DNA of 42,800 nt from a virus (Duplodnaviria; Heunggongvirae; Uroviricota; Caudoviricetes): IMG/VR virus record IMGVR_UViG_2703719347_000006, positions 1 through 42,800 of that record; one strand, written 5' to 3'. Positions within the stretch are counted from its first letter, which is position 1; the number at the start of each line of letters is the position of its first letter. Under the pieces are notes generated by a model. The model was given only the letters and a program-made list of their open reading frames with translations. It was not told the DNA's origin and did no database searches. The translations under genes were made by a program, and so were the position numbers. Below, piece by piece: positions 16,809-24,035 of the stretch.

Positions 16809-16883
16809 GGGTCAGTCGTATAAAGGTCATTACGGAAGGCTGTTAACCTTCTTATCGTGGTTCGAGTCCACGCTGTCCCGCCA
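16809..16883 (+). tRNA. tRNA-Asn (anticodon GUU), by manual cloverleaf folding
   Basis: 75 nt: acceptor gggtcag/ctgtccc (one mismatch), anticodon stem gaagg/ccttc, loop ctGTTaa, T-arm cgtgg-TTCGAGT-ccacg, discriminator g and CCA. Confidence 0.6.
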
Positions 16884-16888
16884 AATAT

Positions 16889-16964
16889 GCTGGTTTAGCT
16901 CCAATGGTAGAGCAGTCGCCTTGTAAGCGAATGGGTAGCGGTTCAAGTCCGTTAACCAGCACCA
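16889..16964 (+). tRNA. tRNA-Thr (anticodon UGU), by manual cloverleaf folding
   Basis: 76 nt: acceptor gctggtt/aaccagc, D-arm gctc/gagc with GG in loop, anticodon loop ctTGTaa, T-arm agcgg-TTCAAGT-ccgtt, discriminator a and CCA. Confidence 0.7.
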
Positions 16965-19086: not shown

Positions 19087-20709
19087 ATGCCGTTACCATT
19101 CCCCTTCGATTTTAAACATCCTGATTACCAGATGGTTTTTGAATGGCGGATGGAACGCCTACAGCGCATTCGCCAGAATCCTGAAATATTGCCTGCACTA
19201 AAACAGTTTTACCGAACCAATCCGGCTCAGTTCATCATCGACTGGGGCATGACAACGGACCCGCGTAATATTGATTATGGCCTGCCGGTGACCATTCCGT
19301 TTTTACTCTTCCCTAAGCAGGAGGAGTGGATCCACTGGATTATGGAACGCTGGGGTAATCGGGAGAATGGTATTACCGAAAAATCCCGTGAAATGGGGCT
19401 CAGTTGGACCGCGATCGGGCTGGCATGCTCGCTTTGTCTCTTCAACAAAGAAATGGTTATCGGTTTCGGCTCCCGTAAAGAGGAATACGTCGACAGCACC
19501 GGTGACCCGAAAGCATTGTTCTGGAAGGCACGCAAGTTCGTGGAAACGCTACCTGTAGAGTTTCGCGGTTCGTGGAGTGAGAAGAAGCACGCGCCATATA
19601 TGCGTGTTGAGTTTCCTGAAACTGGTGCCGTTATCAAAGGCGAGGCTGGCGATAATATTGGTCGTGGTGACCGTACCACGCTTTATCTGGTTGATGAGGC
19701 TGCATTCCTTCAGCGTCCTCTGCTGATTGATGCGGCGTTGTCACAAACGACGCGTTGCCGTATTGACCTGAGTTCAGTTAACGGCATGGCGAACCCGTTC
19801 GCTCAGAAGCGTCATGGCGGGAAGATACCGGTATTCACATTCCACTGGCGGGATGATCCTCGCAAGGATGAAGAGTGGTATCGCAGGGAATGCGAGAAAA
19901 TAGATAATCCGGTGGTGGTGGCACAGGAACTTGATCTGAACTACAGCGCATCAGCGGAAGGCGTCCTGATTCCATCCGAATGGGTACAGGCTGCTGTCGA
20001 CGCGCATATCAAGCTGGGCATCCAGCCAACAGGCAAGCGACTGGGCGCGATGGACGTCGCCGACGAAGGCAGGGACAAAAATGCCTTTTCCACCCGTCAT
20101 GGCTTCCTCCTGGAGAATGTGCGGGAATGGTCCGGTGTGGGCAGCGACATTTATCAGTCCGTCGAGAAGGTTTTCGGCTTTTGCGAACAGGACAACCTCG
20201 AAGAGTTTCGCTTTGACGAGGACGGGCTGGGCGCTGGCGTTCGCGGCGATGCACGCGCTATCAACGAACTGCGTAACGCTGCGCGTCGACCGTCAATACT
20301 TGCCACACCGTTTCGAGGTAGTGGCGCGGTATTTGATCCGGATGATGAAGCTGTTCGCGGGGACAACGGGCAAGCCGCACGTCTGAACAAGGACTTCTTC
20401 GCTAACGCCAAAGCCCAGAGCTGGTGGCGGTTACGTAAACTTTTCCAGAACACCTGGCGTGCCGTGGTTGAAGGTATGGCTTACAACCCGGACGAAATCA
20501 TCTCAATCAGCAGTAGCATGGCACTCAAAGATAAACTCATCATCGAGCTTTCGCAGCCGACCTATTCCATTAATGGTGTGGGAAAAATCGTTATTGATAA
20601 ACAGCCTGATGGAACCCGGTCGCCAAACCTTGCCGACTCGGTGATGATCAGCTATGCCCCAATGAATTCAGCCCTGAATATCTGGGAGCTGCTAGGGAGA
20701 CAGGCCTGA
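19087..20709 (+). CDS. Terminase large subunit
   Basis: 540-aa ORF; deviant Walker A-like EKSREMGLS, Walker [10 protein letters not shown], acidic nuclease-domain residues; upstream of portal with TGATG overlap. Confidence 0.7.
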
Positions 20710-22175
20710 TGGCACGAAACAAACAAGCCCTGCGGAGAACTGCGCAGGCCACCGCTGATGGCTATGAGAACTTTGTCGCCCGCGTGGGAATGCAGACGCC
20801 TAACCAGCACTCAGCATCGACCTACCGGGCTAACTTCACCAGTCGCAACCGCATGCTGGTGGAATGGTCCTATCGTTCGTCCTGGATCATCGGCGAAGCG
20901 GTCGACGCTATCCCGGATGATATGACCCGCAAAGGCATTCGCATCACTTCGGAAATTGATGCAAAAGATCGCGGCATTCTCGAATCACAACTTGATGAGT
21001 TGCAGATCTGGGATGCGCTGAACGACGTGCTGAAATGGTCTCGCCTCTACGGCGGCGCGGTGGGGTTCATCATGATTGAGGGGCAGGCACCAATGACCCC
21101 GCTGCGGCTCGAAACCATTGGAGAAGGCAAGTTTAAGGGTATTCTCCCGCTCGACCGCTGGATGATTAACCCGGTGCTGACCCGCCGCATTAAAGAGATG
21201 GGGCCAGATCTCGGCAAACCTGAGTTTTACGACGTGGTGACCACTGCAACGGGCATCCCGGCCTGGCGCATCCATCACAGCCGCCTGATTCGCTTCGATG
21301 GCGTCACGCTGCCATTCCAGCAGAAGATGACCGAGAACGAATGGGGAATGTCGGTTGTAGAGCGAATCTGGGATCGGCTTACTGCGTTCGACAGCGCCAC
21401 TGTCGGCGCGGCGCAGCTGGTCTACAAAGCGCATTTGCGTACCTACAGCGTGGAGAAGCTGCGCGAGATTATCGCGCTTGGTGGTCCTGCGTATGAAGCG
21501 CTGCTGAAGAACATCGACCTGATCCGCAAGTTCCAGAGCAATGAAGGCATGACGCTCATGGACTCGCGGGATAAGTTTGAAACGCATCAGTACAGCTTCA
21601 GTGGTCTGGATGACATCCTATCGCAGTTTGCAGAACAGATTAGTGGCGCTGTTGGTATTCCACTGGTGCGGTTGTTCGGACAGTCCCCGAAAGGATTTTC
21701 TACCGGTGATGCAGATCTTGCCAACTATTACGACCGGGTGAGCTCATTGCAGGAGCGCCGCTTACGGATGCCGATGCGCCGGATACTGGACATTATGCAC
21801 CGCTCGGAACTCGGTAAGCCGCTGCCGGACGATTTCACGTTTGAGTTTAACCCGCTCTGGCAAATGTCTGATGTCGATCGCTCAACGGTGGCGTTAAACA
21901 CTACCAACGCAATCAGTACGGCGCTGGGTGATGGTCTGATGACACTGAAAGCCGCTATGACCGATTTGCGCGAAAATTCTGACGTAACCGGCATCGGGGC
22001 ATCCATTACCGACGAGGACATAGAGAATGCCGAAGACGAAGCGCCGCCAGGCATCGGCGAACTTGGCGACAAACCGCCAGAGTCGCCAGGCGGAGATCCG
22101 ATATCGAACGAGCCTACGGCAGATAGCGCGGGCGGTCGGGGATATCGTAAATGGTCGCTACGATGGTTCAAATGA
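20709..22175 (+). CDS. Portal protein
   Basis: 488-aa ORF directly after large terminase and before the head morphogenesis gene; acidic C-terminus. Confidence 0.65.
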   Translation: MARNKQALRRTAQATADGYENFVARVGMQTPNQHSASTYRANFTSRNRMLVEWSYRSSWIIGEAVDAIPDDMTRKGIRITSEIDAKDRGILESQLDELQIWDALNDVLKWSRLYGGAVGFIMIEGQAPMTPLRLETIGEGKFKGILPLDRWMINPVLTRRIKEMGPDLGKPEFYDVVTTATGIPAWRIHHSRLIRFDGVTLPFQQKMTENEWGMSVVERIWDRLTAFDSATVGAAQLVYKAHLRTYSVEKLREIIALGGPAYEALLKNIDLIRKFQSNEGMTLMDSRDKFETHQYSFSGLDDILSQFAEQISGAVGIPLVRLFGQSPKGFSTGDADLANYYDRVSSLQERRLRMPMRRILDIMHRSELGKPLPDDFTFEFNPLWQMSDVDRSTVALNTTNAISTALGDGLMTLKAAMTDLRENSDVTGIGASITDEDIENAEDEAPPGIGELGDKPPESPGGDPISNEPTADSAGGRGYRKWSLRWFK

Positions 22176-22191
22176 CAGTGTCACCGAAATA

Positions 22192-22800
22192 ATGGATGCG
22201 CTGGAGCGCTACAGCGAAATCATCACCCCCTGGGCGACGAAGGTTGCTGAGAACTTTACCGCCGACATTGCGCGCCAGAATGAAAAGCAGTGGCGTCAGC
22301 ACAGCAGGAACATCAGCGCAGAGCTGCGCAACATGGTCGACCGCGCCCCGGTAGGCCAGGTGATGAAATCCATCGTCGCCGAGCAAATTAAGTACATCAA
22401 GTCACTGCCTCTTGAGGCCGCCGATCGGGTGTATGACATTCAGAACAAGGCCATCGAGGCCGTTGTGTCTGGTGGCCGCGCTGAGCCATTCGCGAAAGAG
22501 ATAGCTGCGTCCGGTGACGTGTCACGCTCACGAGCGAACCTTATCGCCCGTACCGAGCTTGGACGTGCAACCGGCGCGCTGGATCAGGCGCGTGCGCTGT
22601 CAATCGGCTCGAATGGTTATATCTGGCGTACAGCCGAAGATGGCGACGTCCGGCATTCTCATCGGGAGATGGAAGGTAAGTTTGTCGAATGGGGCAAACC
22701 TCCAACGCTTGATGGCATGACCGGTCACGCTGGCGAGCTCCCGAATTGTCGCTGTTATAAAGAAATCGTTTTTCCCAATCCTCATTCTTATCTCGCCTGA
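22192..22800 (+). CDS. Head morphogenesis protein (Mu F-like / SPP1 gp7 family)
   Basis: Conserved C-terminal motif GDVRHSHREMEGKFVEWGKPP...LPNCRCY; track ORF starts at 22027 overlapping portal by 149 nt, first in-frame ATG after the portal stop is 22192, true start uncertain. Confidence 0.6.
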   Translation: MDALERYSEIITPWATKVAENFTADIARQNEKQWRQHSRNISAELRNMVDRAPVGQVMKSIVAEQIKYIKSLPLEAADRVYDIQNKAIEAVVSGGRAEPFAKEIAASGDVSRSRANLIARTELGRATGALDQARALSIGSNGYIWRTAEDGDVRHSHREMEGKFVEWGKPPTLDGMTGHAGELPNCRCYKEIVFPNPHSYLA

Positions 22801-22814
22801 ATCGCAGGTAAACC

Positions 22815-24035
22815 ATGAAATATTTTTTCAATACCCGGCTGGGGGAAACCCGCTATCAGCTGGCTGACGGCTCGCTGCTGTGCAAAGACGTGCCGATAGG
22901 TCGAACGGGTAAGCAGCTTTACGGCGCTGCCGATCTGCCAAACCTCAAACCCGACAAGCTCGGCGAGATAGTCGTAACGCGCTCTCCTGATCAGGTATTC
23001 CATCCGGCCACGCTCGCCTCATTCGAAGGGATGAGCATCACGATCCTGCATCCTGAAGATGAAAACGGGAATGTGCGGCTGGTCAACCCCGAGAACTGGA
23101 AAGAGCTTGCGGTCGGGCATCTTCAGAACGTTCGGCGCGGGACTGGTGATCAGTCTGATTTGATGCTGGCTGACCTTATCGTCAAAGACGAAAGCGCCAT
23201 TCAGCTGATCGAAGATGGTCTGCGCGAAGTGTCGTGCGGCTATGACGCTGAGTACGAGCAGACCGAACCCGGAAAAGCCGAGCAGGTCGATATTACCGGA
23301 AACCATGTGGCTCTTGTCCCTAAAGGCAGAGCCGGAAATCGTTGTGCAATTGGAGACAGAGACACAATGGCAAATCAAAAGAAAAACTGGTGGAACCGCA
23401 TGCGTGCAGCCATCAAGACAGGAGATGCCGACACCATGAACGAACTGGTGGAGTCGGCTCCCGCATCGGTTACAGGAGATGAGGGGGATTTGCCGCAGGG
23501 CGTTAATCTCAACATCAACCTGTCCCCGCAGCAACCACTACCGGACAAAGCACCAGAGATGGGTGGAGGTCCAACCGGCGACAGTGATGATGACCTCAAA
23601 ACATTACTGAAAGCCCTGCTGGCTAAGCTGGAAGGAAATGCCACGGGCGATAACGATAATAAGCCTGACGATAATCCGACCGGTGACGGCGAGGATGATG
23701 AAGAGGAAACCACGATTACTGGTGACTCAGCCTGGCGTGCCGAAGTTATCGTTCCGGGTATCGATCTGAGCCGTAAGATGAAACCGACCGCGTTCAAACG
23801 CGAGGTTCTGGCTTCCGCTGACAAAACGCTGGTTCGCCAGATAGTCGGTGATGCGGATATCCGCAAATTACCGAAACAATCGGTCAACATGGCGTTTAAT
23901 GCCGTGTCTGAGATTGCCAAAGGGCGAAACACCCGCGCCACCACCGGCGATGCACAGCGCCCAAACATGGGCATGACCAGTATCGCTTCCCTGAACAAAC
24001 AAAACGCTGAATTCTGGGCAAACCGTAAAGGGTAA
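22815..24035 (+). CDS. Putative capsid scaffold/prohead protease protein
   Basis: 406-aa ORF between head morphogenesis and capsid genes; long acidic low-complexity region (GDSDDD...GEDDEEE). Confidence 0.4.
   Translation: MKYFFNTRLGETRYQLADGSLLCKDVPIGRTGKQLYGAADLPNLKPDKLGEIVVTRSPDQVFHPATLASFEGMSITILHPEDENGNVRLVNPENWKELAVGHLQNVRRGTGDQSDLMLADLIVKDESAIQLIEDGLREVSCGYDAEYEQTEPGKAEQVDITGNHVALVPKGRAGNRCAIGDRDTMANQKKNWWNRMRAAIKTGDADTMNELVESAPASVTGDEGDLPQGVNLNINLSPQQPLPDKAPEMGGGPTGDSDDDLKTLLKALLAKLEGNATGDNDNKPDDNPTGDGEDDEEETTITGDSAWRAEVIVPGIDLSRKMKPTAFKREVLASADKTLVRQIVGDADIRKLPKQSVNMAFNAVSEIAKGRNTRATTGDAQRPNMGMTSIASLNKQNAEFWANRKG

Follow-up and report, generated by a model that had tools for sequence, protein, structure and literature searches.

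A conserved start codon and ribosome-binding site for a MuF-like gene lie inside the portal gene of a SEN34-like prophage

Known overlaps and the portal/MuF junction

Genes that share a long stretch of one strand are familiar in phages. In lambda, Rz1 is embedded in Rz and read in the +1 frame, and phiX174 has its own overlapping genes. This article concerns a gene pair in 42,800 nucleotides of DNA from a virus of the class Caudoviricetes (IMG/VR record IMGVR_UViG_2703719347_000006, positions 1 to 42,800), a stretch called the window below. In this pair, the conserved start codon and ribosome-binding site of a gene for a MuF-like head-morphogenesis protein lie inside the gene for the portal protein. 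The MuF protein likely starts at the ATG at 22027, within the 3' end of the portal gene, and 149 bases would then be translated in two frames.

Outside phages, long overlaps have a poor reputation. A survey of 338 prokaryotic genomes judged none of 715 co-directional overlaps exceeding 60 bp to be real, and the longest genuine one, holD/rimI, covers 32-56 bp (PMC2478687). The phase-1 bias among long overlaps has been ascribed to composition (PMC2542354). As for the genes themselves, those encoding MuF proteins sit directly after portal genes, and SPP1 gp7, a member of the family, binds the portal (PMC5576092).

How does the locus in the window compare? Like holD/rimI and the 1- and 4-nucleotide overlaps involved in translational coupling, it is co-directional, and both protein ends and the underlying nucleotides are conserved among orthologues. 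At 149-158 nucleotides, however, it is about three times longer than holD/rimI and too long for termination-reinitiation coupling. The lengths of the proteins agree among orthologues, a comparison in which the published long overlaps fail. With Rz/Rz1 and the phiX174 genes it shares two frames on one stretch, an internal Shine-Dalgarno sequence and start, and suppressed synonymous variation. It differs from them in that the overlap is terminal, one gene's 3' end over the other's 5' end, rather than fully embedded, and in that its partners are two essential virion-assembly genes, with products known from SPP1 to interact. There is no appearance of a newly created gene in either the portal or the MuF partner.

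The MuF gene resembles the rest of the MuF/SPP1 gp7 family in having the domain above the cut-offs and in following the portal gene. It is a short form that lacks a C-terminal toxin domain, and it differs in that its 5' end reaches 149 nucleotides into the portal gene, in the +1 frame. The portal-MuF fusions of phrog_2662 have the same two domains in the same order; those in the window, by contrast, are encoded by separate open reading frames (ORFs) that differ in frame and have a start and a stop apiece, and no sign of a fusion was found. No description of a portal/MuF overlap was found in the literature searched, a search that had most subscription journals outside it. The overlap is a genuine, long, co-directional one, and its mechanism is not new; which codon exactly serves as the start, and what the portal tail does, are what we infer.

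Layout of the overlap

The two genes and the elements of their junction are the following.

20709-22175, + strand: portal gene, 488 amino acids, Phage_portal_3 / HI1409 family (PF06381, 353.9 bits; TIGR01555, 245 bits)
22014-22018, + strand: Shine-Dalgarno sequence GAGGA, within the portal codons Glu-Asp (GAG GAC), with an 8-nucleotide spacer to the ATG; pairs with the 3' end of 16S rRNA
22027-22800, + strand: MuF-like head-morphogenesis / minor capsid gene, 257 amino acids from the ATG (PF04233, 66.9 bits)
22027-22029, + strand: proposed MuF start ATG, across the portal codons Asn-Ala (AAT GCC); found in 65/65 junctions and 83/83 relatives
22027-22089, + strand: first part of the overlap, encoding the portal acidic/proline linker AEDEAPPGIGELGDKPPESPG and the basic N-terminal tail of MuF MPKTKRRQASANLATNRQSRQ
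22063-22065, + strand: alternative start TTG, codon 13; the start given by the Prokaryotic Genome Annotation Pipeline (PGAP) to 245-amino-acid relatives (P0001 and similar)
22090-22175, + strand: second part of the overlap and dual-coding core, encoding the conserved helix and loop of MuF AEIRYRTSLRQIARAVGDIVNGRYDGSN and the C-terminal tail of the portal DPISNEPTADSAGGRGYRKWSLRWFK, followed by the portal stop
22173-22175, + strand: portal stop TGA, formed by the MuF codons Asn-Asp (AAT GAC), as read from the sequence
22192-22194, + strand: downstream ATG, codon 56; taken as the start by RefSeq (identical DNA) and by the records of SEN34 and yong1; no Shine-Dalgarno sequence (+0.1 kcal/mol)

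An initial sequence-only reading of the window had pointed to an overlap of about 150 nucleotides, and the ORF layout agrees: positions 22027-22175 are shared, 149 nucleotides in all, MuF being +1 to the portal frame, and the last 49 portal codons also belong to the MuF gene. The MuF frame is closed by a TAG at 22021-22023, and therefore no start lies further upstream in the window. The frame is open from 22024, its second codon (22027-22029) is the ATG, and the next in-frame ATG past the portal stop is the one at 22192. In 23 of the 65 distinct junction sequences, which were taken from 87 related loci, the MuF Asn codon is AAC; the portal stop then shifts by one codon to TAG and the tail ends in ...WFKR.

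MuF matches its profiles above the curated cut-offs (PF04233, 66.9 bits against 29.6; TIGR01641, 45.4 bits against 39.65), and a match to phrog_324 (E=7e-90) spans residues 5-255. The portal matches solved structures (Pam3 portal 8hds, E=6e-36; E217 gp19 8fvh, E=4e-13), its relatives in the PDB being the Pam3, E217 and Pa193-type portals, and its C-terminal residues, ~452-488, fall outside every structure and profile match. In the window and in its relatives, the MuF gene follows the portal gene directly within the packaging/head module. Chance alone could leave some 50 codons open in the +1 frame; what takes this frame beyond chance is the conservation evidence.

Conservation of the MuF N terminus

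Where does conservation of the MuF protein begin? In an alignment of 18 relatives (60-98% identity), residues ~20-55 are among the best conserved of the whole protein, with G38, I40, Y45, D46, S48 and N49 invariant, and residue 56 is M, I, L or Q. For homologues with 36-48% identity, the alignment begins around residue 18-25; 24 of them share the motif AE..Y...LR.IA..IG.I at residues 22-41, in which L30 is invariant. On a wider scale, a HMMER scan of 1.84 billion representative proteins returned 7,212 MuF homologues, of which the best 150 were inspected. About 130 of these 150 (36-63% identity, mostly 36-48%) align from query residue 30 or before, and the rest are mostly fragments or proteins of the same clade annotated from a codon-56 start. 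The 257-amino-acid protein aligns end to end with homologues of 240-260 amino acids, and the portal ORF is kept at 488-492 amino acids in relatives.

The predicted structure tells the same story. AlphaFold2, given the homologue alignment, models MuF with a mean predicted local distance difference test (pLDDT) score of 90.1, and residues 21-60 score 95-97. The predicted helices cover residues 3-44 and 49-65. A start at M56 would drop the first helix and cut the second, because M56 falls within it. Thus, the N-terminal region of MuF encoded upstream of 22192 is conserved and confidently folded. A search by sequence for solved structures of MuF gave spurious helical-repeat matches only, and neither proteomic nor structural data turned up for this clade.

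Constraint on both reading frames

Do both frames leave a mark on the way the shared bases vary? Nucleotide diversity was computed by codon position from 83 distinct relatives aligned over 1.35 kb, and classes of sites were compared by Mann-Whitney tests. The values for codon positions 1, 2 and 3 are as follows.

Portal only, outside the overlap, portal frame: 0.10, 0.07, 0.38
MuF only, outside the overlap, MuF frame: 0.10-0.14, 0.05-0.08, 0.36-0.38
22090-22175, MuF frame: 0.048, 0.062, 0.203
22027-22089, portal frame: 0.165, 0.15, 0.209

Within 22090-22175, it is the MuF codon frame that sets the periodicity of variation, and the third positions of portal codons have a diversity of 0.062, compared with 0.376 outside the overlap (p=1.9e-13). 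The third positions of MuF codons are in turn about half as variable as elsewhere (0.203 versus 0.370 outside; p=5.8e-5). These tests are to be read with the knowledge that the sequences are phylogenetically related, that the site-class comparisons share one tree, and that recombination could blur them. At 22161-22170, where each MuF third position doubles as the opening base of a portal codon (R-W-F-K), diversity is 0-0.05; from 22173, where the portal stop begins, it climbs to ~0.5. Constraint on the portal frame predicts just such a step. Both frames are under purifying selection in 22090-22175.

The first part of the overlap behaves otherwise: among the 83 relatives, 22027-22089 has no codon periodicity in either frame, and both of its products look like tolerant linkers. 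The basic tail of MuF and the acidic motif of the portal are nevertheless both retained in relatives. The acidic GAR/GAY codons of the portal read AAG, ACG or CGC (Lys, Thr or Arg) in the +1 frame and also supply the GAGGA, which offers a simple reason why this combination of frames is workable.

Choice of the upstream start

Two start codons upstream of the portal stop compete, the ATG at 22027 and the TTG at 22063. The first has by far the stronger ribosome-binding site. Its duplex with the 3' end of 16S rRNA is worth -5.9 kcal/mol, comparable to the -6.1 kcal/mol at the start of the major capsid gene in the window, and the -5.9 kcal/mol holds in all 83 relatives. The corresponding values are -2.5 kcal/mol for 22063, which is about the regional median, and +0.1 kcal/mol for 22192. 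The complete arrangement GAGGA-N8-ATG is present in 65/65 junctions, among them those of prophages in Arsenophonus, Morganella and Pantoea with 60-70% identity at the protein level. Two bases of this element, 22016 (GAG versus GAA) and 22028 (AAT versus AAC), could change without altering the portal protein, and both are invariant in 83/83 relatives, whereas neighbouring portal-synonymous sites vary (22013, C in 72 and T in 11; 22019, C in 33 and T in 50; 22022, A in 15, C in 59 and T in 9; and 22025 also). The spacing to the conserved helix fits as well. In 20 distant loci with one possible start, that start is 6-28 codons before the helix (median 18.5; mostly 17-28), and in the window the distance is 21 codons from ATG 22027 and 9 from TTG 22063.

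The sequence-only reading had left two options open, a true start at 22192 or an upstream, non-ATG start that would be unusual. It was right that translation can begin inside the portal gene. The need for a non-ATG codon falls away, since 22027 is itself an ATG and is preceded by a conserved GAGGA.

Several observations weigh against a start at 22027. Codons 1-21, the first part of the overlap, are those that show no codon periodicity of variation, so that their translation in the MuF frame would be suggested by the conservation of the Shine-Dalgarno sequence and ATG, by the basic character of the product and by analogy with distant homologues. All relatives have TTG, ATG or GTG, each able to serve as a start, at codon 13/14, and PGAP takes this codon as the start for thousands of genomes. 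The AlphaFold2 pLDDT is only 55-62 for MuF residues 1-20, and the SEN34 paper reports no proteomic evidence for the MuF protein. The relatedness of the aligned sequences, mentioned above, counts here too. Finally, the conserved portal peptide TDEDIENA could account for part of the conservation of the Shine-Dalgarno sequence and ATG, though it leaves the invariant synonymous bases unexplained.

The best-surviving alternative is that MuF starts at TTG 22063, giving 245 amino acids and a real but shorter overlap of 113 nucleotides, or that 22027 and 22063 are both used. For many relatives in Escherichia coli and Salmonella, PGAP annotates the gene from this TTG. NCBI proteins of 245 or 244 amino acids (P0001, P0020 and others) start at this position, a start-capable codon stands 8-10 codons before the helix in 65/65 junctions, and a few single-start distant homologues are equally short (6 codons in L175 and L177; 9 in L148). 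Most of the single-start homologues, however, have 17-28 codons before the helix, and pairing at 22063 is no better than the regional median. The codon itself drifts in type and position (TTG at -9, ATG at -8, GTG or ATG at -10/-9), much as a conserved hydrophobic residue would, and a start at 22063 leaves the invariance of 22016 and 22028 unexplained. As evidence of a second start, the start-capable codon at 22063/22066 was set aside; it is better read as a conserved Leu, Val or Met. On balance a start at 22063 is unlikely, and 22027 would be the codon used.

Portal/MuF junctions in distant phages

Is the overlap peculiar to close relatives of the window? To place it more widely, 93 loci were collected whose MuF homologues share ~36-50% identity with the protein of the window. 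In the 68 unique loci with both genes, a hidden Markov model was used to map where the portal stops with respect to where the conserved MuF helix begins. In 31 of the 68, the portal ORF runs 5-281 nucleotides past the helix start, which makes an overlap unavoidable, and all 31 have MuF in the +1 frame. In another 26 the portal ends 0-110 nucleotides before the helix, and the choice of start codon decides whether there is a short overlap or none; in the remaining 11 the two genes are separated by something else. A long +1 portal/MuF overlap is therefore widespread in this module, and its length is variable.

The portal tails found at these junctions are of recurring types. Aromatic and basic tails occur in overlapping clades (YRKWSLRWFK in the window, IRQWLSRW in L128 and ARQWLSAWRSKR... 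in L105) and also in non-overlapping ones (FFRRFWFKRG in L116, VSWLKRLRRK in L156 and LFGRWRKKR in L148). Another set of portals ends in LHP.L...L.KL. The matches to solved portal structures extend into neither type of tail, and Trp-containing tails are kept in clades whose MuF is only ~45-50% identical. This pattern suggests, without proving it, that the tail motif serves some function in these portals and is accommodated within the MuF frame.

A bolder proposal is that the shared 149 nucleotides are a co-adapted dual-coding module rather than a tolerated accident. An arrangement selected across a wide phage group would fit both the 31 of 68 loci with recurring +1 overlaps and the persistence of the Trp tails. 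If it were true, the acidic linker and aromatic/basic tail of the portal (...RKWSLRWFK), electrostatically complementary to the basic tail and first helix of MuF, could form with them a contact by which MuF docks onto the portal, and an internal start in the translated portal RNA could fix a low ratio of MuF to portal. We regard this proposal as doubtful.

Two further observations concern homologues of the pair. In one Arsenophonus sp. locus (L005; JAZHPL010000011.1, 1687-3756), the portal is called at 366 amino acids and its frame stops early in the tail, with MuF and the GAGGA-ATG intact; the locus probably belongs to a symbiont prophage that is decaying. Many distant MuF homologues are 430-1010 amino acids long with the MuF region at the N terminus (P0135, P0141, P0155, P0171, P0249 and others). 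They fit the polymorphic-toxin architecture described for MuF proteins (PMC5576092), of which the window protein is the short, toxin-less form.

How the two proteins might be made

With the start at 22027, expression of the pair can be pictured as follows. Both products would come from the same late polycistronic mRNA. Some ribosomes would start at the portal ATG at 20709 and read through to the TGA at 22173, producing a portal whose tail ends in ...RKWSLRWFK. Others would initiate independently at the internal GAGGA-N8-ATG and, reading in the +1 frame, produce the 257-amino-acid MuF, whose first 55 residues would consist of the basic tail and the long conserved helix. The acidic linker codons of the portal, which read as Lys or Arg in the +1 frame and carry the GAGGA, may make the arrangement easy to evolve and to keep. 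In this scheme, MuF initiation would be independent of portal translation, and the portal tail would be functional. Termination-reinitiation coupling was considered and rejected, the portal stop being 146 nucleotides downstream of the MuF ATG. RNA structure that could hide or expose the internal start gives no signal (the fold of 21975-22085 is at -29.9 kcal/mol, compared with -28.5 kcal/mol for shuffles; z = -0.43), and no promoter or terminator consensus that could provide a separate MuF transcript was found on the + strand in 20600-23000.

Could the overlap instead serve a programmed +1 frameshift, yielding a portal-MuF fusion that places MuF at the portal vertex? The frame of MuF is indeed +1 to that of the portal, both in the window and in each of the 31 distant loci where overlap is unavoidable. 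Natural fusions of the two exist, as in the phrog_2662 'portal protein', in which positions 496-708 of 717 match MuF residues 26-248. The gp7 protein of SPP1 binds the portal and is present in 1-2 copies per capsid (PMC5576092). Yet there is no conserved +1 slippery site, the sole candidate, AAA TGA C at the portal stop, being AAA CGA TAG in 23/65 junctions, and the region around the start of the overlap has, as mentioned, no significant RNA structure. None of the best 150 MuF representatives has its MuF region behind a portal-sized N terminus, and a frameshift is unnecessary because a Shine-Dalgarno sequence and ATG for independent initiation are conserved. A programmed frameshift is very unlikely, and independent initiation at 22027 is the preferred reading.

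A related idea about origins, that the pair arose by a single frameshift in an ancestral portal-MuF fusion, also fails in its simple version. There is no single point at which the frame could have switched, because the portal motif (N/D)AE.E.PP, which is common to non-overlapping distant portals, sits downstream of the MuF ATG.

Consequences for annotation

The public records disagree about the length of this protein. For DNA identical to the window, RefSeq gives a 202-amino-acid product from 22192 (WP_000339323.1), and to close relatives it assigns 245 amino acids. The SEN34 and yong1 records use the same 22192 start, and phage 606R2 has a product that is shorter still, at 176 amino acids. 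Many NCBI relatives are 245 or 244 amino acids long, and metagenome callers give 257. One MuF gene family is thus found under five public lengths (257, 245, 244, 202 and 176 amino acids). The evidence favours the 257-amino-acid form. Automatic overlap penalties probably caused the truncation of MuF. The N-terminal helix region (residues ~20-65), conserved in the subfamily, lies outside the PF04233 and TIGR01641 matches (residues 137-243), and this gap in the Pfam and TIGR models probably contributes to the truncated annotations.

The shortest of the readings considered, a true start at ATG 22192 with 202 amino acids, no overlap and upstream conservation that merely reflects the portal tail, has on its side that this is the first ATG past the portal stop and the annotators' choice, and that the surveyed co-directional overlaps above 60 bp were all judged to be misannotation, mostly a mispredicted downstream start (PMC2478687), but it is effectively excluded: MuF homology starts ~35 residues further upstream even where that region is clear of the portal (L089, L146 and L165), codon 56 is ATG in only 42 of the 65 junctions (ATT, ATC or CAG in 23) and has no Shine-Dalgarno sequence, variation in 22090-22175 follows the MuF frame, and M56 is inside a confidently predicted helix. 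The ribosome-binding site there had already been called weak from the sequence, and indeed no Shine-Dalgarno pairing is found. It had also been suggested that homologue alignments might place all conservation downstream of 22192, which would have made the matter a trivial start-site call; the alignments were made, and conservation begins upstream of it.

What follows from the longer protein? (i) A start at 22192 loses 55 residues, among them a conserved and confidently folded helix, and a widespread annotation error can be corrected. (ii) The junction is a well-supported counter-example to the working rule that co-directional overlaps of more than 60 bp are prediction errors. (iii) The overlap links the ends of two proteins whose interaction is known from the SPP1 model. 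(iv) Single-base changes that are silent in one frame are possible, and these offer a route to the functions of the portal tail and of the MuF N terminus.

Genomic setting

The window contains the head module of a SEN34-like (Brunovirus-type) prophage. Its gene order is large terminase (TerL), portal, MuF, DUF2213, cement protein and major capsid, and relatives have the same order. The neighbour on the upstream side is as follows.

19087-20709, + strand: large terminase, from the ORF list

The stop of TerL and the start of the portal gene share one base (cTGATG, window 20707-20711), an overlap of the usual coupling type and unlike the 149-nucleotide one between portal and MuF. On the opposite strand, an ORF of 147 amino acids with a TTG start (21728-22171, - strand) spans the overlap region and is open in SEN34 too; it probably arose as a by-product of G+C-rich coding DNA under strong constraint. 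The prophage also carries two adjacent transfer RNA genes, tRNA-Asn(GTT) at 16809-16883 and tRNA-Thr(TGT) at 16889-16964. E. coli chromosomes carry DNA identical to the window, and 339 of 5,426 complete E. coli genomes contain close relatives.

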